Assembly (NCBI GenBank): GCA_947258815.1
Contig: CAMYJW010000011.1
Span: 96,831-160,830 of the forward strand
DNA from: an uncultured Sphingomonadaceae bacterium
GTDB taxonomy: Bacteria > Pseudomonadota > Alphaproteobacteria > Sphingomonadales > Sphingomonadaceae
DNA: 64,000 nucleotides
Reading direction: 5' to 3'
This document shows positions 34,136 to 42,223 of this stretch, in pieces. The position numbers and the translations under genes were made by a program. The first letter of the stretch is position 1. Each line of letters begins with the position of its first letter. Under the pieces are notes generated by a model that saw only the letters and a program-made list of their open reading frames with translations, made no database searches and was not told the origin of the DNA.

Positions 34136-35110
34136 CTAGGCCCCGGTTTCCGAAGATTTGCCTGAAGGCATTTCCGCGCCGAGATGGGCACGGCCTTTTC
34201 GCGCCGCCAGCGTCTGCTGCAGGTGCCGCTCGCGATAGCGCGCGCGCTGTTCGTCGGTTCGCGCATCGTGGCAGGCCGGGCAGCTCACACCCTTTTCATA
34301 AAGCGGCGAAGCACAGTCCGCCTCGCTCAGCGGACGACGACAGGCATAGCACAACGCATATGTCCCCGGCGCCAGCCCATGGCCAACCGATACCCGCTGA
34401 TCGAATACAAAGCATTCGCCCTGCCAGAGGCTTTCCTCTTCGCGAACCGTCTCAAGATATTTGAGAATGCCGCCTTTCAGGTGATAGACTTCGTCCACAC
34501 CTTCTTCCTTGAGAAATGCGGTCGATTTCTCGCAGCGAATGCCGCCAGTGCAGAACATCGCGACTTTGGGTGTCTTGCCCTGCCCCAGAAGCCTGTCTCG
34601 CTCCCGCCGGAACCAGCCGGGAAACTCGCGAAAGCTGCTGGTGCGTGGATCGATCGCACCGGCAAAACTGCCGATCGCGACTTCATAATCGTTGCGCGTG
34701 TCGATCACGATCGTATCCGGATCGGAAATCAGCGCATTCCAGTCTTGCGGGGCAACATAACGCCCGACACTGGCCAGCGGATCGATATCCGGCTCCCCCA
34801 TGGTCACGATCTCTTGCTTGACGCGCACTTTCAAACGATGAAACGGCATTGCCTGGGCACCGGAAAACTTGACGTCCAGATCGGCACAGCCGGGCAACCC
34901 GCGAATATGATCAAGCGCGCGCGCAATGCCCTGATGCGTGCCCGCGATCGTCCCGTTTATGCCTTCCTTCGCCAGAAGCAGCGTGCCCCTGATGCCTTCG
35001 GCGCGGCAACATTGCTCAAGCGGCATGCGCAAGCCTGCGCAATCCTGGAAAGGCGTGAAGCGATAAAGCGCCGCCACGCAAACGGCGGAAGAGTTGCTGT
35101 TGTGATTCAT
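34136..35110 (-). CDS. trhO: Rhodanese-domain tRNA uridine(34) hydroxylase TrhO (YceA family)
   Basis: 324 aa from MNHNSNSS.... UPF0176 N-terminal domain (AALYRF...[10 protein letters not shown]). Rhodanese active loop [12 protein letters not shown]-terminal Cys-rich tail. The listed 788-aa ORF continues upstream only as antisense of the next gene. Confidence 0.85.
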
Positions 35111-35335
35111 GGCAGGCCCCATAGCGCGATTTGCGGCCGATTGGCACCGCAATCCCTTGGCAATCCCTTGGCATTCTCTTGACAGGCCTGCACGTTCAAC
35201 CGCGAACACGCCCCGCAAGACCATGCATCGCGATCCCCACGATGGAACCACGAGCGAGCCTGCCCATCCAAATGCGCTGTTGCAAGTGGCGCGCGTGGCC
35301 GGATAAACCAAGGCAGCGCAACAACTGGAGTTCAT

Positions 35336-36580
35336 GTGCACCAGATCAACATAGATCGGATCGAAAGCGACATAACCGCGCTGTCCCGGTTCGGCTTCAA
35401 CGAAGAAGATCGCGGCGTCTACAGACAGGGTTTCAGCACAACCGACATGGCCGCCAGAGCATGGTTGCGCGATCGTTTCGATGAACTTGGCATGGCGCAT
35501 CGGATGGATGGCGCGGGCAACGTGATCGGTCGGTTCGGCCCGGCGGACAAGCCCTGCATCATGATCGCGTCTCATCTCGACAGTGTGCCCGCGGGGGGTA
35601 TTTTCGATGGCGTGCTGGGCGTTATTGCCGGGCTGGAATGCGTGCGCACGATGAAGGAAAACGGCATCGAACCGGCCTTCCCGATCGAAATTGTCGGCAC
35701 CAGTGAGGAAGAGGGGCGCTTTGGCGGCATGTTGGGGGCGCAGGCAATGACCGGCCGCCTCACGCGCGAATGGCTGGACAGCGCTACGGACGAGCATGGC
35801 TATGCACTGAAAGACGCGATGGCCGCTGCGGGCCTTGATCCCTATGATGCCCTGCACGCCTATCGGCGGCCAGAAGAGATCAAGGCTTTTCTGGAACTCC
35901 ATGTCGAACAGGGCCCGGTGCTCGACATGGAAAAGGTCACGATTGGCATCGTCGAAGGAATCTCGGGCGTTTTCAAATGGAACTGCCGCCTCATCGGCAA
36001 GGCGGACCACGCCGGAACCGCTCCGATGCATATGCGCAGCGACGCACTGATGGGGATGGTCGATTTCGCGCACGAGATTCAGCGGATTATCGATGAGGAA
36101 GGGACAGACAAAAGCCGGATCACCATCGGCCATGTCGCCTGCAAACCGGGCTTTCCGCACACCGTTCCGGGCGAAGTGGATTTCACCATAGTCGGCCGCG
36201 ATCTCGATGAAACGGTGATGACGGCGCTGGCCGGAGCGTGCGAGCGTGTGCTGGCCAGCATCGCGCGCAGACACAAGCTGAAGTTTGAATACGAACAGAT
36301 GAGCTGGCTGAAACCGGCACACTGCGACGCCGATCTGATGCGGCTGATCGAAGCGAAAGCGAAGAATCTGCAGTATAGCTACAAGGTCATGCCATCGGGC
36401 GCGGGCCACGATGTGCAGTTCTTCTGCGATCACACCAAGGCGGCGATGTTCTTCGTGCCCAGCGTCGGCGGGGTATCCCACGCGCCGGACGAATGGACCC
36501 ACTGGTCAGACATCGAACGCGGCACGCAGTTGCTGCTCGAATGCGTGCTGGAACTGGCCTGCGAAAAGGTGGAAGCCTGA
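35336..36580 (+). CDS. M20 family Zn-dependent amidohydrolase (allantoate amidohydrolase / N-carbamoyl-L-amino-acid hydrolase / beta-ureidopropionase type)
   Basis: [18 protein letters not shown] and [11 protein letters not shown] metal-site motifs of the AmaB/AllC/HyuC group. GTG start at 35336 with GGAG 5 nt upstream. 414 aa. Confidence 0.8.
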
Positions 36581-36661
36581 ACGGAAAACGCGCTAAGCCC
36601 GCGCGGCGTATGAGCGTTGCTTTTCCGTTCGCGCCAACCTGAACGGAAAACGCGCTAAGCC
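36576..36661. repeat. Perfect 24-bp direct repeat CCTGAACGGAAAACGCGCTAAGCC (36576-36599 and 36638-36661) flanking a complementary TTTTCCGTTC arm
   Basis: Read directly. Copy 1 contains the TGA stop of the plus-strand amidohydrolase. Copy 2 contains the TAG stop (cta, 36655-36657) and last codons of the minus-strand AsnB-like gene. GAACGGAAAA in either copy can pair with TTTTCCGTTC (36621-36630). Confidence 0.85.
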
Positions 36662-38598
36662 AGCAAATCACCCATCGCGTGCAGCGCGATGGCATGATTG
36701 AGGATGATGTCCTTGCGCGTGTTCTGGGTGTGATCGTCGCTCTGGCGGTAATCTTCTATCGAGGCGCGCAGTTTTGCCTCGTCGAAAATGCCGAGCTCTG
36801 CGATTTTGGGCGATGAAAGCCACTTGTCGATCAGCTTGTTGATCTCTGCGGTCTTGGCCTCGTCCGTGTGCGCGGGCGGAGCCATGAACGCAAACTTTTC
36901 GCGCTTGTAGAGCACTTCGGGCAGAACATGCTTCATCGCCTCGCGCACCACCCATTTTTCTACCCCGTCGCGAATGCGGACGTGCGGCGGAATGCGCATC
37001 GCCAGTTCGGCAACATGATGATCAAGAAACGCGGGGCGGCTTTCAAGGCTGTTGGCCATATCCACCCGGTCTCCGCCCCAGTTGAGGATCTGGCCTTCCA
37101 GCATCGTCTTGATCCACGAATACTGCACCTTGTCGAGCGGGTGTCGGCCATCGAGCATCGCCGGATCAAGGCTTTCGGCAATTGCGGCGATCGGATCGTA
37201 ATCGCCCAGCTTTGTCTTGAATGCCTCGCTCAGAAGCGGCTTCACACGCTCAAGCACCAGCATCCACGGCTGAATCCAGCTGGGCGTGAACCCCATCACT
37301 TTTTCGAAGGCCGGGTGGCTGATCTGCTTTTCCGCAAGAACCGAGCCGGAGAAAAGCGCATTGCGCTGTTTCATTTCATCGCCGGCGGCGGTTTCGGAAT
37401 AGGCCGGATCGTGGAGGAAATAGTCCGCCTTGAACTGGGCATAGCCGCCAAACAGCTCGTCCGATCCTTCTCCGGTGATGACCACTTTATAGCCAACTTC
37501 GCGGACGTGCTTGCTCATCAGCATTTTGGCGACACCCAGCGTGTTGTAAAAAGTGCGCTCGGAATAGTACACCGCGTCTTCGAAATTCTGGCCGTAAAGA
37601 TCGAGAGCCTTCACATTCAGGATATCCTGATCGGCCCCGGCCTTTTGCGCCATTTCAGTGGCGATGTGCGCTTCATCGTAGCGCGTGTCATCAAAACTGA
37701 TGGTGAACGCCTTGACCGGCGACTGCTGAATCGCTGCTGCCATGCCGATAATCGAACAGCTGTCGATCCCGCCAGAGAGATAACAGGCCACCGGCACATC
37801 GGCCTCCAGCCGGAACGTGATGCTTTCCACCAGCGCGGCGCGGACATTTTCGATATGCTCTTCATCGGGCAGATCGTCATGTTCGCCGTCCAGCGGGAAC
37901 GCCGCATCCCAATAACAGCGATCCTCAACCTCAAAACCATCGCCCTTGCGCGAAACGATCAGCATGTGGCCGGGCCGCAACGCCTCTATCCCTTCGAACA
38001 GCGTCATCCCCGGAACCATCACCTGCATCATCTGATGCAACTGCGCTTTGGGGCACATCGTGCGCGGCACGGCAGGATGGGCCAGCATCGCCTTCATTTC
38101 CGAAGCCCAGAAAAAGCCTTCCTCGCCATGATGGAAAAACAGCGGCCTGATGCCAAAGCGATCGCGCACCAGGATCAGCTGCTCTTTTTCCTCGTCATAG
38201 ATTGTGAACGCAAATTCGCCGCGCAGATGATCCACGAAATCCAGCCCGTGCTTGCGATAAAGCTTAAGCGCGATTTCACTGTCAGACTTGGTGTTGAACT
38301 CAAATCCATCCGTGCGCAGCAGGCCGCGCAGGCGCTTGTAATCGTAAAATTCGCCATTGGCGGTCAGCACCAGCCCGCCGGTTCCATCGCTTTCGTTCCC
38401 GTGGATCGGCTGGTCGCCCGCATCGAGGCCGATGATAGACAGCCGCGTGTGGGCCATCGCCAGACCATGCTGCCTGGCAATATGAAATCCGCGCCCGTCC
38501 GGCCCGCGATGATAGAGCGTATCGGCCATCTTTTCGGCCAGCGCCATGTCTGCATGTTCGGGGGCGTTTGGGCTCCACAGCCCGGCAATGCCGCACAT
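36655..38598 (-). CDS. Asparagine synthase (glutamine-hydrolysing) family amidotransferase (AsnB-like)
   Basis: N-terminal nucleophile MCGIAG (Cys2, Ntn glutaminase). PP-loop YLSGGIDS. 647 aa. AAGGA RBS lies upstream. Confidence 0.85.
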   Translation of the reverse strand: MCGIAGLWSPNAPEHADMALAEKMADTLYHRGPDGRGFHIARQHGLAMAHTRLSIIGLDAGDQPIHGNESDGTGGLVLTANGEFYDYKRLRGLLRTDGFEFNTKSDSEIALKLYRKHGLDFVDHLRGEFAFTIYDEEKEQLILVRDRFGIRPLFFHHGEEGFFWASEMKAMLAHPAVPRTMCPKAQLHQMMQVMVPGMTLFEGIEALRPGHMLIVSRKGDGFEVEDRCYWDAAFPLDGEHDDLPDEEHIENVRAALVESITFRLEADVPVACYLSGGIDSCSIIGMAAAIQQSPVKAFTISFDDTRYDEAHIATEMAQKAGADQDILNVKALDLYGQNFEDAVYYSERTFYNTLGVAKMLMSKHVREVGYKVVITGEGSDELFGGYAQFKADYFLHDPAYSETAAGDEMKQRNALFSGSVLAEKQISHPAFEKVMGFTPSWIQPWMLVLERVKPLLSEAFKTKLGDYDPIAAIAESLDPAMLDGRHPLDKVQYSWIKTMLEGQILNWGGDRVDMANSLESRPAFLDHHVAELAMRIPPHVRIRDGVEKWVVREAMKHVLPEVLYKREKFAFMAPPAHTDEAKTAEINKLIDKWLSSPKIAELGIFDEAKLRASIEDYRQSDDHTQNTRKDIILNHAIALHAMGDLLA

Positions 38599-38637
38599 AT
38601 TCAGTAAGTCCTTGTTCGCAAAATCAGGGGGCGGGGT

Positions 38638-39732
38638 TCAGCCAAGAAACGTGCTGGGCACGACATCGCGCACCCGGCCAAAGATCGAAAGCAGCAAAGC
38701 CTGCCTGATCCAGACCGCTCCATCCGCCTGGTTGAAATAGAGATTGTGCTGCGAAGCATCGAGATCGAGCCCCAGTTCCGCGCCGCGCGCCAGCGGGTGC
38801 AAAATCACCGTGTCCGGCTTCAGTTTACTATCACCGTCCAAAGCAAACTCGGTTCCCAGATGGCGATAACCATCGCCCAGAAAGGCGATCGCGTTCAGAT
38901 AAATCACATCCAGATACTCAAGGCTGCCCTGCAGATCCTGCGAAAAATTGATGCCGACGGGGCTGGCATTGGTCAGCTCGCGAATTTCATCGCCCAGCGG
39001 ATCGGCCATTTCGGAAAAAATGGTGATGTGGTTGATGTTTTCATGGAATAACAGCGCCAGCGTGAGAAAGCTCTTCACCGTGCGCATGTTGCCCGGCGTG
39101 CCGATAATACCGATGTTCAGGCGGAATTCCTCGGGCAACTTGCCAAAGGCGATTTCGGGCCGCCACTTCAGCAGCGCATACCAGTCAGCCAGTGCCTGCG
39201 TTGGATGTTCGTCCGATCCATTGCCGCCGTTGATCAGTGGAATCTTGAGATATTCGGTCAGGTCTTCGATCGCGCGCTGTTCGGTGTGGCGAACAACCAC
39301 AACATCGGCATAGGAATTGAACATCTGTCCGATATCGCGCAGCGATTCTCCTTTGGCGACGCCGGTTGTCTTGGCGTCGGCGACGCTGATGGTCTTGCCG
39401 CCGACCCGCAACATCGCGCTTTCAAACGACAGGCGCGTGCGCGTGCTTGGCTCAAAAAAGGCTGCGGCGAGGATTTTGTCTTCCAGCGCGTGTCCGGCGG
39501 GAAACTGTCGCAACTGAAGATAGGCGGCAAGCTTGGCCAGCTCGACAAGCAGCTCGTTATCAAATTGCGTGGCCGAAAGGACCGAACTGTCTTGCAGCCG
39601 ATCAAGCACAGGCGCGCGCAGCATGGGCGAATGCTCAAGCAAGGCCGCGGGATTTGGCCGATTGCCGAGGATGCCTTCGCGACGGTCGGGATCGGCATCG
39701 TGGCTGACCTGCGCGGCGGAAAGGTCGCTCAC
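38638..39732 (-). CDS. Aspartate/ornithine carbamoyltransferase family protein, ATCase-like
   Basis: Carbamoyl-phosphate site FFEPSTRTRLSFE. EHPTQALAD. ATCase-like HPLAR near the C-terminus. The start is uncertain. GTG 39732 has GGGGA upstream and a high-GC3 frame. ATG 39624 would give a canonical ~328 aa ATCase length. The listed start is 39798. Confidence 0.7.
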   Translation of the reverse strand: MSDLSAAQVSHDADPDRREGILGNRPNPAALLEHSPMLRAPVLDRLQDSSVLSATQFDNELLVELAKLAAYLQLRQFPAGHALEDKILAAAFFEPSTRTRLSFESAMLRVGGKTISVADAKTTGVAKGESLRDIGQMFNSYADVVVVRHTEQRAIEDLTEYLKIPLINGGNGSDEHPTQALADWYALLKWRPEIAFGKLPEEFRLNIGIIGTPGNMRTVKSFLTLALLFHENINHITIFSEMADPLGDEIRELTNASPVGINFSQDLQGSLEYLDVIYLNAIAFLGDGYRHLGTEFALDGDSKLKPDTVILHPLARGAELGLDLDASQHNLYFNQADGAVWIRQALLLSIFGRVRDVVPSTFLG

Positions 39733-39847
39733 CACACATCCCCGCGCGCAGCATCGCGCAGCAAACACCCGGCAAGGCCAAGCGCGGAAACGGCGCACCA
39801 GATCAGCGCGCCATAGATAATCAGGTTCAGAAAGCCGCTGGAAAACG

Positions 39848-41272
39848 TCATGCTGTTTCTTTCAGCTTGGCCCAGTCAAACCGGGGCTTTGCAATCAAGG
39901 CGCAGCCCAGCACCCAGATCATGGAAACGGCGGTGGCGATCAGTGTCGCCACGTACCAGCCGATCGCGAAATAGCAGACGAGGCCAACGCCTGCACCCAA
40001 CAGCATCCCCCCGACCGCGCCGACGCTTGTTGCACTGCGCCAGTATAGACCGGTGACGATCGGCCATATCATTGCCCCGACAAGCGGACCGGCGAAAAAC
40101 AAAACCGTCGCCAGACTACCGATACGGGGCAGGCAAACCGCCCAGGTGAACACACCCAGTGCCACTGTCACATATTGCGCAATCTTTTTCAAATTTTGCT
40201 GCGGTGCAGCAGGGTTGATCATCCGCCGGTAGATATCTTCGGTGACCAGATCGGACGTCGCCGCGAGCAGACTGTCAATGCTGGATGCCAGCGAGCAGAA
40301 TACGATCACGAAGATCGCAACCGCGCCCGCCATCCCCAGCACGTCTGCAATAACCAGCGGCCCGACCATGTCCGGCGCCGGAACCGGAACGTTCAGCGCG
40401 CCCGATGCCAGCGCAATGAAGCCCGCGGCGATCGGGATGGGGAGCCAGACCAGTCCGCCCAGAGCAAACGCCTTGCCCGCCACGCCTTCGCGAAAGGCAA
40501 ACGCGCGGCTCCACCAGACGTTGTTGTGAAACACCTCTCCCAGCCCGAACAGCAGGTTGTTGAATATCGCCATGATCGCGGCGGGGAACAGCACGTCAAG
40601 CAGTGCAGGCCGCTCTGCCGCAAGGTTCGCGTGAATCTCCTCAACCGATACATGGCTGAGCACGGCAAAACCCACCACGACGATGCCGACGATGATAATC
40701 AGGCTCTGAATGAAATCCGTACCGATAACCGCCGCCAGTCCGCCGCGCATGGTGTAGATCACACACACCGCCAGGATCACGCTCATCCCCCAGACATAGG
40801 GTATGCCCGACAGCGCATTGAGCACGATGCCGCCTGCCATCGCCATGCTGACCAGCCAGGTGAGCGAATAGAACAGCGTGAAAACCAGAAAGATCGCCCA
40901 GGCCAGCTTGCCATAGCGCAGCCGGAAAAAATCGCCGCTGGTATAACCCTTGGGCATCAACGCGCGAATGCGATTGGCCATCGGCGCAAACAGCAGCAGC
41001 CCGAACGAGGCGGTGGAATAAGCGATCATGCCCCAGATTCCCAGTTGCAGCGCGAATTGCGGCGCCAGCATCGTGGTGTTGGAAGTGATCCAGGTCGCCG
41101 CCGCCGTCGCGGTGCCAAGCGCCAGCCCGATATTGCGCCCGGCAAGAGCATGATCCTCGAAGCTCTTGTTGCGTCGCCCCCAGTAAACGCCCAGCGCAAT
41201 CCACAGCACGCTGAACAACGCCAACAGCAGCCATGCCGTGTTGGCAGGCAAAATCGCGTCGGCGCTACTCAT
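39848..41272 (-). CDS. Sodium:solute symporter (SSS) family transporter
   Basis: 474 aa with about 12-13 TM helices in the SSS-like pattern. Its ATG overlaps the upstream gene by 8 nt. Confidence 0.8.
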   Translation of the reverse strand: MSSADAILPANTAWLLLALFSVLWIALGVYWGRRNKSFEDHALAGRNIGLALGTATAAATWITSNTTMLAPQFALQLGIWGMIAYSTASFGLLLFAPMANRIRALMPKGYTSGDFFRLRYGKLAWAIFLVFTLFYSLTWLVSMAMAGGIVLNALSGIPYVWGMSVILAVCVIYTMRGGLAAVIGTDFIQSLIIIVGIVVVGFAVLSHVSVEEIHANLAAERPALLDVLFPAAIMAIFNNLLFGLGEVFHNNVWWSRAFAFREGVAGKAFALGGLVWLPIPIAAGFIALASGALNVPVPAPDMVGPLVIADVLGMAGAVAIFVIVFCSLASSIDSLLAATSDLVTEDIYRRMINPAAPQQNLKKIAQYVTVALGVFTWAVCLPRIGSLATVLFFAGPLVGAMIWPIVTGLYWRSATSVGAVGGMLLGAGVGLVCYFAIGWYVATLIATAVSMIWVLGCALIAKPRFDWAKLKETA

Positions 41273-41690
41273 CGCGCGCGCCCCGCAGGATCGTCAGCAC
41301 GATCGCCAGCGTAACAAGCATGCCGATCGCCGACAGCCAGATTGCGCGCTGCAAGGACTGGTGCATAACCTCAAGCCGGACCGGGGCCGAAACGGCGCCG
41401 CTTTTGCCTTCAAGGCGAAAATAGTATTCGCCATTGGCCAGGCCTGACAGAAAATAACCGGCCGCCGATCCGCGATAGACAGTGCGCGCGTCGGAGAAAT
41501 CCGAACGGGTTGCGATCAGCATCGAAACCGGCTCGTCGGATTGCCATGCCAGCGACACGTAACCGGCATCGCTGGTCAGGTCATCGGGCCCGCTGAACGC
41601 CGGAGCCGGTGTCGCCGCCAAGGCCGGTGCCGCCAACGCGAACAGCGCAGCCAGACAGACGCACGCGAGCCCCCGCCGACGCGCAGCCAC
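41265..41690 (-). CDS. Secreted/membrane-anchored small protein: signal peptide, beta-sandwich (FN3-like?) domain and a C-terminal TM helix
   Basis: GTG start. The signal peptide is AARRRGLACVCLAALFALAAPALA. The middle part GYVSLAWQSD...YRGSAAGYFLSGLANGEYYFRLE is FN3-like. C-terminal TM helix AIWLSAIGMLVTLAIVLTIL. Translationally coupled to the symporter. The domain call is by eye. Confidence 0.5.
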   Translation of the reverse strand: MAARRRGLACVCLAALFALAAPALAATPAPAFSGPDDLTSDAGYVSLAWQSDEPVSMLIATRSDFSDARTVYRGSAAGYFLSGLANGEYYFRLEGKSGAVSAPVRLEVMHQSLQRAIWLSAIGMLVTLAIVLTILRGARDE

Positions 41691-41768: not shown

Positions 41769-41905
41769 ACTGAAGAGGATTGTTCGTTGTCCGTCCTGCC
41801 GGCCGTCGTGCCGGTGCGCCTGCTGATTAGGTTAGCATGCAACCCCTAACAAACCCGCCCGCTCTTGTGAACCGCCCGGACCGGATCAACCGCGCCAGGC
41901 GTTGC

Positions 41906-42223
41906 CTAGTGCGTTCCGCCATTTTTCTTCAGGCTCTCCTCCATCCGGGCGAGCTGTTCGGGCGTGGCCTCGGTCTGATACGCAGATTTCCACTGATCGA
42001 ACGGCATCCCGTGAATAAGTGCGCGCGCGGCGGCCTTATCGCCTTCGTATCCGGCATCGCGAATCCAGTCCGCCAGACAATTGCGGCAAAACCCGGAAAG
42101 CCCCATCAGATCAATGTTCTGAGCGTCATGCCGATGCCGCAGGTGGCGGACAAGACGGCGAAAGGCAGCCGCGGCGGTGGCATCGTCAAGCGTGTCGAGC
42201 GGATCGTTTTCGGTCATAGTCAT
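41906..42223 (-). CDS. DUF1244 domain-containing protein
   Basis: 105 aa. The FRRLVRHLRHRHDAQNIDLMGLSGFCRNCLADW core is the conserved DUF1244 pattern. Confidence 0.8.
   Translation of the reverse strand: MTMTENDPLDTLDDATAAAAFRRLVRHLRHRHDAQNIDLMGLSGFCRNCLADWIRDAGYEGDKAAARALIHGMPFDQWKSAYQTEATPEQLARMEESLKKNGGTH

Follow-up and report, generated by a model that had tools for sequence, protein, structure and literature searches.

Two described gene systems and one natural compound form the background of this work. The operon for N-acetylglutaminylglutamine amide (NAGGN), known from Sinorhizobium meliloti and Pseudomonas aeruginosa, is made of asnO, a GNAT gene and a gene for an M42 peptidase, to which some genomes add the MarR regulator PA3458 (PMC8070244). 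The ectoine clusters are as a rule flanked by importers, which are Ehu, Tea or EctI (PMC13342039). The compound is N-alpha-carbamoyl-L-glutamine 1-amide, a bacterial osmolyte that acts as compatible solute of Ectothiorhodospira marismortui; the literature found by full-text searches names no genes for it. Here we describe a locus that has likenesses to all three. It lies at positions 35336-41690 of a 64,000-nt stretch of contig CAMYJW010000011.1 from an uncultured Sphingomonadaceae bacterium (this whole stretch is called the window below), where a minus-strand operon encodes a small membrane protein, a sodium/solute symporter (SSS), a 40-aa mini-protein, a carbamoyltransferase (CT) and an AsnB-like amidotransferase, and faces a plus-strand M20 hydrolase. 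An initial annotation of the window had proposed four minus-strand open reading frames (ORFs) and the convergent plus-strand one, and all five were found where it had put them. Full-text searches found no description of such a cluster.

What is this set of genes for? We think that the module makes, takes up and breaks down an N-carbamoyl amino-acid amide and is built like the NAGGN osmolyte system, and we give this reading a probability of about 40%. On this view the region would hold a copy of a module that is complete in itself, has spread horizontally and serves a small solute, uncharged and rich in nitrogen. The likeness to NAGGN lies in an AsnB-family amidotransferase that would work on an N-blocked amino-acid derivative, an adjoining N-blocking enzyme, a metallohydrolase, and a MarR regulator in a subset of loci. 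There are also several differences. The N-blocking enzyme here would be a carbamoyl-phosphate-dependent transcarbamylase and not a GNAT or the ATP-grasp enzyme Ngg; the hydrolase belongs to M20, joined in some loci by an isochorismatase-family cysteine hydrolase (Iso), and not to M42; a dedicated and probably three-part SSS transporter is encoded in the operon; and the AsnB-like enzyme scores 287 against the AsnO equivalog model TIGR03104, where 570 is needed. Neither a GNAT or ATP-grasp gene nor an M42 gene was found among the conserved neighbours of the module. With the ectoine ect clusters the locus would share the genetic coupling of synthesis genes to an uptake system for the same solute, but chemistry and enzymes are unrelated, and the transporter here sits inside the operon and is apparently coupled in translation to the first enzyme. 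What is new here is probably the specificity of the transcarbamylase and the architecture of the transporter, in a cluster that would serve an N-blocked amino-acid amide solute. The gene content, conservation, linkage and active-site motifs described below are direct observations.

Conservation of the module across bacteria

The operon had first been regarded as an orphan, which it is not. A genome scan with one genome per GTDB species gave at least 80 loci at 50% identity or more, spread over more than 10 phyla. The conservation counts in this text refer to 84 loci analysed by tblastn and all-against-all clustering of ORFs, and the motif counts of the AsnB-like enzyme to 75 members. The module was found in Sphingomonadales, Rhodothermales, cyanobacteria, Leptospiraceae, Spirochaetota, Burkholderiales, Nitrosomonas, Nitrospira and many Bacteroidota, as well as in Verrucomicrobiota, Planctomycetota (including Rhodopirellula baltica and Stieleria), Myxococcota, Calditrichia (Calditrichota) and others. 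Three distant CT homologues, one each from Nitrosomonas aestuarii, a cyanobacterium of the Oscillatoriales and a Nitrospira chromosome, all lie in the same cassette. Among the matches listed, the closest relatives of the operon proteins in the window are those of Croceicoccus and marine Novosphingobium. The named hosts of the module are overwhelmingly marine or saline taxa.

CT is present in 84/84 loci, and an SSS transporter gene adjoins it in 83 of them. The AsnB-like gene was found at every locus long enough to hold one, always in the order transporter, CT, AsnB, and the family of the 141-aa small membrane protein stands upstream of the transporter in 75/84 loci. The shared gene order is more than chance, since it recurs in about 84 loci of more than 10 phyla. 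The four- to five-gene synteny, for which a comparison across Alphaproteobacteria had been suggested, therefore extends far beyond that class. The loci of the autotrophs Nitrosomonas and Nitrospira contain only the genes for making and taking up the presumed solute, while many heterotroph loci add the genes for breaking it down. Loci with the transporter and the hydrolases in the absence of CT and AsnB, which would belong to pure consumers, were not found; the stand-alone M20-Iso pairs that were found had no linked transporter. A search of plasmids for mobile copies returned as its sole match one distant record of chromosomal size.

The carbamoyltransferase and its amidotransferase partner

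The CT gene (38638-39732, minus strand) has a GTG start and encodes 364 aa with the domains OTCace_N and OTCace; the start at 39732 is backed by homologue lengths of 363-364 aa. Its best matches in the PDB are aspartate carbamoyltransferases (ATCases), at about 199 bits, and its fold is of the ATCase branch. Is it then simply an ATCase? The NCBIfam models speak against this. CT scores 169.5 with TIGR00670 (cutoff 236.95), 163.9 with PRK00856 (cutoff 263) and at most 105 with the models for ornithine carbamoyltransferase (OTCase), whose cutoffs are at least 281; none of the curated cutoffs for pyrB, argF, putrescine and YgeW is reached.

The active-site motifs were compared with the definitions given in a review of the transcarbamylases (PMC4581275). 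According to this source, R229 and Q231 of ATCase, in the RxQxER motif of the 240s loop, anchor the beta-carboxylate of aspartate, R167 and K84 position the alpha-carboxylate, and ureidoglycine transcarbamylase (UGTCase) is characterized by the motif H(T/S)LP. The carbamoyl-phosphate site, for which SxRT, HPxQ and HxLP are the signatures, is conserved in the CT family, with STRTR in 84/84 and HPTQ in 83/84 members, and so is the equivalent of R167 (83/84). The motif HPL[AV]R is present in 81/84, and the CT of the window has HPLAR where ATCase has HPLPR; its sequence reads FFEPSTRTR, EHPTQ and HPLAR, and so contains the motifs first annotated. The motif RxQxER occurs in 0/84 members, and in its place the 240s loop carries a nearly invariant Y(M/V)N(S/A)IAFLGD(S/G)Y. 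H(T/S)LP is likewise found in 0/84, and there are no purine-catabolism genes among the conserved neighbours. The signatures of the ornithine branch (OTCase, PTCase, DPTCase and DBTCase), which are the DxxxSMG loop with HCLP for OTCase and HDLP for DPTCase and DBTCase, do not occur in CT. Thus CT is neither PyrB nor ureidoglycine transcarbamylase. As the carbamoyl-phosphate site and R167 are kept and RxQxER is absent, carbamoyl phosphate and an alpha-carboxylate should bind, while the side chain of aspartate should not. In short, CT has in common with PyrB and UGTCase the fold, the carbamoyl-phosphate site (STRTR, HPTQ, HxLxR) and the equivalents of R167 and K84, and it differs from them in the YxN(S/A)IAFLGD(G/S)Y loop, HPLAR, an extra N-terminal extension, and the lack of pyrC, pyrI or purine-catabolism neighbours.

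The extension comprises about 45 aa (39598-39732, minus strand, in the window) and has the conserved pattern AAxVxH ... G-x-x-P-D/N-P-x-N-L. It is present in the transporter-linked CTs, which have 358-368 aa, and absent from the sister CTs without a transporter, which have 316-333 aa. Possibly it serves CT for docking on the transporter complex. On the level of protein families, the CT clade makes up only about 7 clusters (50% identity, 1.8 billion representatives) above an ATCase background of about 1000 ATCase-like clusters, and all of the roughly 7 clusters share the YxN...HPLAR signature. We conclude from these comparisons that CT most probably represents a small and distinct clade of the ATCase branch and a new specificity class, different from all characterized ones.

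These results bear directly on the simplest explanation of the locus, namely that CT is the cell's pyrB, the AsnB-like enzyme its asparagine synthetase, and the transporter a neighbour by chance. Database records mostly name the proteins of this clade 'aspartate carbamoyltransferase', and the AsnB-like enzyme passes the generic cutoff of TIGR01536; both points speak for it. On the other side stand the absence of RxQxER from all members and the scores under all pyrB equivalog cutoffs, the fixed five-gene order across phyla, and the rarity of the family in comparison with the ATCase-like clusters. Furthermore, pyrC and pyrI never adjoin CT in the loci examined. No canonical pyrB was found within the window or in any fetched locus, and the window holds no paralogue of CT. 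The initial annotation was thus right to set CT apart from the housekeeping ATCase, and the motif and cutoff tests essentially exclude the reading of the two genes as housekeeping pyrB and asnB, which has next to no probability left.

The gene of the AsnB-like enzyme (36655-38598, minus strand, 647 aa) follows CT after a gap of 39 nt, as had been noted. The protein consists of GATase_7 and Asn_synthase domains and reaches 405 bits with TIGR01536 (cutoff 267), and it falls short of the equivalog of the E. coli-type AsnB, PRK09431 (261, cutoff 499), as it does of the AsnO one. Its closest solved structures are 7YLZ and 1CT9. The annotated nucleophile Cys2 (in MCGIAG) and PP-loop (SGGIDS) are in place, as is the NGE region (NGEFY), and in the family MCGI is kept in 68/75, NGE in 72/75 and SGGxDS in 75/75 members. 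Two reactions had been considered for this enzyme, amidation of a carboxylate and ring closure as in beta-lactam synthetases. Because the glutaminase Cys nucleophile is conserved, it should be an amidotransferase and not a cyclase of the beta-lactam-synthetase kind; only the first of the two proposals was therefore retained and the second was rejected. The enzyme can be described with good reason as a glutamine-dependent amidotransferase.

Does this pair of enzymes occur elsewhere? In a rare sister pair (P0242/P0393), identity to the proteins of the window is about 46% for CT and about 51% for AsnB; a transporter is missing, and so is the N-terminal extension of CT. One of its loci (L166, 3568-10929) has carA, carB, CT and AsnB in one operon, 2.4 kb from a gene for a GT20 plus S6PP-type (sucrose-phosphatase-type) synthase, which would make trehalose-, sucrose- or glucosylglycerol-phosphate; this arrangement near an osmolyte synthase speaks for the biosynthetic direction of the CT-AsnB pair. 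In the closest relative of this sister (L171/L172), CT and AsnB stand without carAB. CT-AsnB is the conserved core of the sister arrangements.

More distant sisters are found in clusters of another kind. The CT P0240 of Actinophytocola stands with genes for AsnB, JmjC, TenA, kinases, and dCMP-deaminase-like and ThyA-like proteins, and the surroundings of CT P0244 resemble a nucleoside biosynthetic gene cluster. These two suggest that CT-AsnB might supply a ureido-amide building block for a bioactive pyrimidine-like or nucleoside-type compound, that is, a precursor of a secondary metabolite or antimetabolite. A gene of the JmjC/cupin-8 family also precedes the Nitrospira cluster. Against such a role, the loci of the main family are free of cyclase, tailoring or export genes, the conserved partners are an importer and two hydrolases, and the uniform distribution over more than 10 phyla is unlike that of a specialized-metabolite cluster. 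We consider this explanation highly improbable for the module. Distant CT sisters of this kind, on actinomycete-like contigs, were noted at L165 (8001-17080) and L170 (1-16996), one of them from Actinophytocola and the other from a metagenome contig, in clusters with genes for JmjC/cupin-8, TenA, APH-type kinases, a ThiD-like kinase, dCMP-deaminase-like and thymidylate-synthase-like proteins and an N-deoxyribosyltransferase; both clusters look like biosynthesis of a modified pyrimidine or nucleoside. In a Nitrospira metagenome-assembled genome (MAG; L004, 4840-5817) the JmjC/cupin-8 oxygenase gene is directly upstream of the small-protein gene, and it belongs to the family shared with the actinomycete sister CTs. 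The oxygenase might hydroxylate the product in some lineages.

Transporter, hydrolases and surroundings of the locus

The operon begins with the small membrane protein (141 aa; 41265-41690, minus strand), whose gene overlaps that of the SSS transporter (474 aa; 39848-41272, minus strand) by 8 nt, in agreement with the initial annotation. Between the transporter and CT a gap of about 115 nt had been described. It is not intergenic: 39729-39851 on the minus strand holds a conserved mini-ORF for a 40-aa single-helix protein, MTFSSGFLNLIIYGALIWCAVSALGLAGCLLRDAARGDVW. Its ATG overlaps the stop codon of the transporter (ATGA) and its TGA overlaps the start of CT (GTGA), each by 4 nt. An equivalent mini-ORF lies between SSS and CT in 80/83 related loci of all phyla, and 78 of the 80 copies end in Trp. 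The spacing between SSS and CT clusters at 112-129 nt in steps of 3, and the entropy by codon position (1.33/0.90/1.66 bits) has the pattern expected of a coding sequence. Gene callers usually miss it, and it was called only in the Nitrospira locus L004; no Pfam or NCBIfam model matches it. The mini-ORF is thus very probably a real coding gene that is translationally coupled to both SSS and CT, by which the operon comes to five genes. Translation appears to be coupled all the way from the first membrane protein via the transporter and the mini-protein into CT.

The transporter matches Pfam SSF with 85 bits (cutoff 22.8), and stays under the superfamily model TIGR00813 (134.8, cutoff 184) and under the PutP, PanF and ActP equivalog cutoffs; it passes no substrate-specific NCBIfam equivalog. 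The 141-aa protein begins with what looks like a signal peptide, is rich in beta structure in its middle part and ends in a transmembrane helix; it matches no Pfam or NCBIfam family. It had been annotated as a beta-sandwich membrane protein. A single-sequence AlphaFold model of low confidence (pLDDT 62) has an N-terminal helix, four strands and the C-terminal transmembrane helix. The beta-sandwich label is weakly supported: the match to fibronectin 10Fn3 by hhalign is weak (probability 55%, E = 1.2e-4, 42 columns), and a Nitrosomonas homologue gives a weak Pfam match to Pur_ac_phosph_N. SSS permeases with small accessory membrane proteins are known, namely PanF with YhdT and ActP with YjcH. 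The likeness is that an SSS permease is encoded together with small single- or double-pass membrane proteins, and the difference is that the partners here, one FN3-like of 141 aa and one Trp-terminated of 40 aa, match no described family. The 141-aa and 40-aa proteins are likely to be single-pass partner subunits that make the SSS protein a three-part transporter.

What does the transporter bring in? One explanation is that it imports an external amino compound. Modification by CT and the AsnB-like enzyme would trap this compound, detoxify it or lead to its assimilation, and M20 and Iso would complete its conversion, so that the module would serve salvage or catabolism and not de novo synthesis. 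The transporter is universal, comes first and is coupled to CT through the mini-protein, the N-terminal extension of CT correlates with the presence of the transporter, and many hosts are algae-associated heterotrophs with sulfatase genes nearby. But the module is also carried by obligate chemolithoautotrophs and cyanobacteria, steps dependent on ATP and carbamoyl phosphate are unusual in catabolism, and the sister clade P0242/P0393 has CT-AsnB without a transporter and once with carAB. Exploiting the reverse CT reaction would need a carbamate kinase, and neither this nor another catabolic partner was found among the conserved neighbours, which argues that CT consumes rather than produces carbamoyl phosphate. 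We regard the processing of an imported compound as distinctly unlikely.

The M20 hydrolase (414 aa; 35336-36580, plus strand) is convergent with the operon and of the N-carbamoyl-amino-acid amidohydrolase type. It passes the cutoffs of TIGR01879 for hydantoinase/carbamoylase amidases (334 bits, cutoff 204) and of NF006771 (505.6, cutoff 399), and among solved structures the L-N-carbamoylase 3N5F comes closest to it with 230 bits, while allantoate amidohydrolase reaches 172 bits. This agrees with the group in which it had first been placed. It belongs to the same amidase family as the enzymes of hydantoin and N-carbamoyl-amino-acid metabolism, including 3N5F, the N-carbamoyl-L-glutamate amidohydrolase ErtE and the allantoate amidohydrolase AllC. 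Unlike ErtE and AllC, it does not reach the respective equivalog cutoffs (371 vs 520; 261 vs 598), and hydantoinase, allantoinase or ergothioneine genes are not found nearby. In contrast to the hydantoin and carbamoylase systems, M20 here is linked to an enzyme that would add the carbamoyl group. The supposed functional link between M20 and the operon is borne out by an orthologous M20 within 7 kb of the cluster in 43/84 loci. Its placement varies: the gene can follow the cluster on the same strand, stand upstream in divergent orientation, converge on it like the one in the window, or lie between the transporter and CT.

In 26 loci the isochorismatase-family gene Iso follows, always directly after M20; its weak best matches are the biuret hydrolase BiuH and RutB. 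MarR regulators occur in 12 loci. When metagenomes were scanned with Iso as the anchor, M20-Iso came out as a fixed pair; of 20 loci flanked on each side by 6.5 kb or more, 18 had the pair inside or beside a CT cluster. Interleaved orders were seen as well, such as SSS-CT-M20-Iso-AsnB and small-M20-Iso-SSS-CT-AsnB. Two further observations concern M20. In the Oscillatoriales MAGs L002 (4237-5462) and L003 (4238-5462), the cluster-linked M20 is frameshifted into two or three pieces, which is either a pseudogene or an assembly error. In L040 (8050-10947) and at the same position in L075, both from Bacteroidota, the genes of CT and AsnB are separated by one for a protein of 965 aa, the central part of which matches the carbamoylase-type M20 family.

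The close company of CT and M20 allows another explanation: the carbamoyl group could be a transient protecting group, which CT puts on the amine, under which the AsnB-like enzyme amidates, and which M20 removes, so that the pathway would end in an unblocked amino-acid amide or something derived from it, and not in a carbamoylated solute. CT and M20 are indeed in the same operon, even interleaved, in many phyla, and the M20 family includes ArgE and DapE, which deprotect by removing N-acetyl or N-succinyl groups in arginine and diaminopimelate synthesis and to whose family there are weak NCBIfam matches. On the other side, about half of the loci, autotrophs included, have no M20 within 7 kb. 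M20-Iso is a separable unit, often divergently transcribed and sometimes alone, and Iso would be left without a role except to undo the AsnB step. A protecting-group pathway is on the whole unlikely.

As for the surroundings of the locus, the spacer of 74 nt between the convergent AsnB-like and M20 genes contains terminator-like hairpins on both strands (36588-36620). A 332-aa plus-strand ORF at 34184-35182 was rejected as a non-coding shadow; the true gene is UPF0176/rhodanese (TrhO-like; 34136-35302, minus strand), and therefore M20 stands alone between two minus-strand units. The flanks hold unrelated housekeeping genes, which are the TrhO-like rhodanese and a GST on one side and DUF1244, pyruvate kinase, a YggS-like gene and FtsK on the other. 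The DUF1244 gene (105 aa; 41906-42223, minus strand) adjoins the operon upstream on the same strand, a neighbourhood that is not kept in other phyla. Upstream of the operon there is a promoter-like motif, GGTTCAC-N-TTTGTTAGGGG (41843-41873, minus strand), and downstream of this motif a palindrome or leader hairpin, CACCGGCACGACGGCCGGCAGGACGG (41791-41816, minus strand). The Sphingomonadales loci have in common GGTTCAC-N15/16-TTTG(T/A)TAGGGG and, about 25 nt downstream, the palindrome CCGGC-N6-GCCGG, the stem of which has one compensatory change in L011 (CCGAC...GTCGG). The palindrome may act as an operator or as a leader RNA. No known riboswitch or other RNA was found with Rfam, either in the window as a whole or in the leader region. 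A general-stress promoter of the EcfG type was considered upstream of the operon and dismissed, with no match to GGAAC...CGTT.

Proposed function and its significance

Much of the earlier interpretation has thus held, namely the non-housekeeping CT, the synteny, the link to M20 and the amidation, and what has been given up is the orphan status and the ring closure. How would the module work? The chemistry of all steps, the way in which the solute is transported and the role in physiology are inferred from the genes as follows. To make the solute, CT would use carbamoyl phosphate to carbamoylate the alpha-amino group of an L-amino acid that has a free alpha-carboxylate and no aspartate-type beta-carboxylate; candidate acceptors are glutamine, glutamate and asparagine, and the product would be an N-carbamoyl amino acid. 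The AsnB-like enzyme, with ATP and ammonia derived from glutamine, would then turn a carboxylate of this product into a carboxamide. To take it, the three-part Na+/solute symporter, presumably co-translated with the enzymes, would import or recapture the neutral solute or possibly its precursor. To break it, M20 would remove the carbamoyl group and Iso, in other phyla, the amide, which would yield the amino acid, NH3 and CO2. In saline habitats such a pool would most likely help the cell to adapt to osmotic conditions and/or to buffer nitrogen. The gene set has a symmetry in which a carbamoyl adder is matched by a remover and a carboxamide maker by a member of an amide/ureide-hydrolase family, with an importer and, in some lineages, MarR.

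Several observations weigh against this proposal. R. baltica has the complete six-gene cluster (L065), but the solutes reported for it from nuclear magnetic resonance (NMR) are limited to sucrose, glutamate, trehalose and mannosylglucosylglycerate (PMC3694870), and no such compound is listed; therefore, the product is no major osmolyte there under those conditions. Not all hosts are saline, as in the case of a Sphingobacterium from faeces, and a salt-responsive element was not identified at the operon. Making and breaking genes that are co-directional or even interleaved would create a futile cycle without further control, and a linear pathway fits this arrangement equally. Moreover, the transporter is always first and coupled to CT, and the CT extension occurs only where a transporter is linked, so the transporter could instead supply the substrate of CT. 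The supplements of the R. baltica salt-shock microarray have no entries for a carbamoyltransferase or an asparagine synthetase. In the same microarray the SSS gene RB3967 is mildly down-regulated; it could not be tied to the cluster.

There is a further question of concern, which amino acid is the acceptor? N-alpha-carbamoyl-L-glutamine 1-amide suggests itself by its structure, which is glutamine plus one transfer of a carbamoyl group to the amino group and one amidation of the alpha-carboxylate. Among the approximately 350 CT family matches listed by the genome scan and by protein searches seeded from different subclades, there is no Ectothiorhodospira or gammaproteobacterial member, though absence from these matches is no evidence that the module is lacking there. 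That the module is the genetic basis of this compound, or of a near homologue, for instance the asparagine analogue, is a tentative suggestion that we find rather doubtful. If it is true, the solute would be a widespread nitrogen-rich compatible solute of marine bacteria in more than 10 phyla and not the curiosity of one phototroph. It would be made, recaptured through an SSS transporter of a novel type with three subunits and, by heterotrophs, consumed as well, and CT would have a new transcarbamylase specificity as an N-carbamoyltransferase for a neutral amino acid. A gap of 30 years concerning the genes of carbamoyl-glutamine amide would possibly be closed.

The proposal of an N-carbamoyl amino-acid amide as such, if true, would have wider consequences. 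It would give a function to a transcarbamylase clade that is mislabelled 'aspartate carbamoyltransferase' and extend a family of textbook enzymes by a further class of substrates. Both CT and its AsnB-like partner are soluble and of well-behaved families, and substrates for their assay are cheap. The SSS transporter would have two previously unrecognized single-pass subunits, one of them a 40-residue micro-protein missed by gene callers. And for the bacteria that carry the module, it would mean a new small-molecule pool, an osmolyte and/or a nitrogen buffer, together with its turnover, in abundant marine Bacteroidota, Planctomycetota, Verrucomicrobiota, nitrifiers and cyanobacteria.

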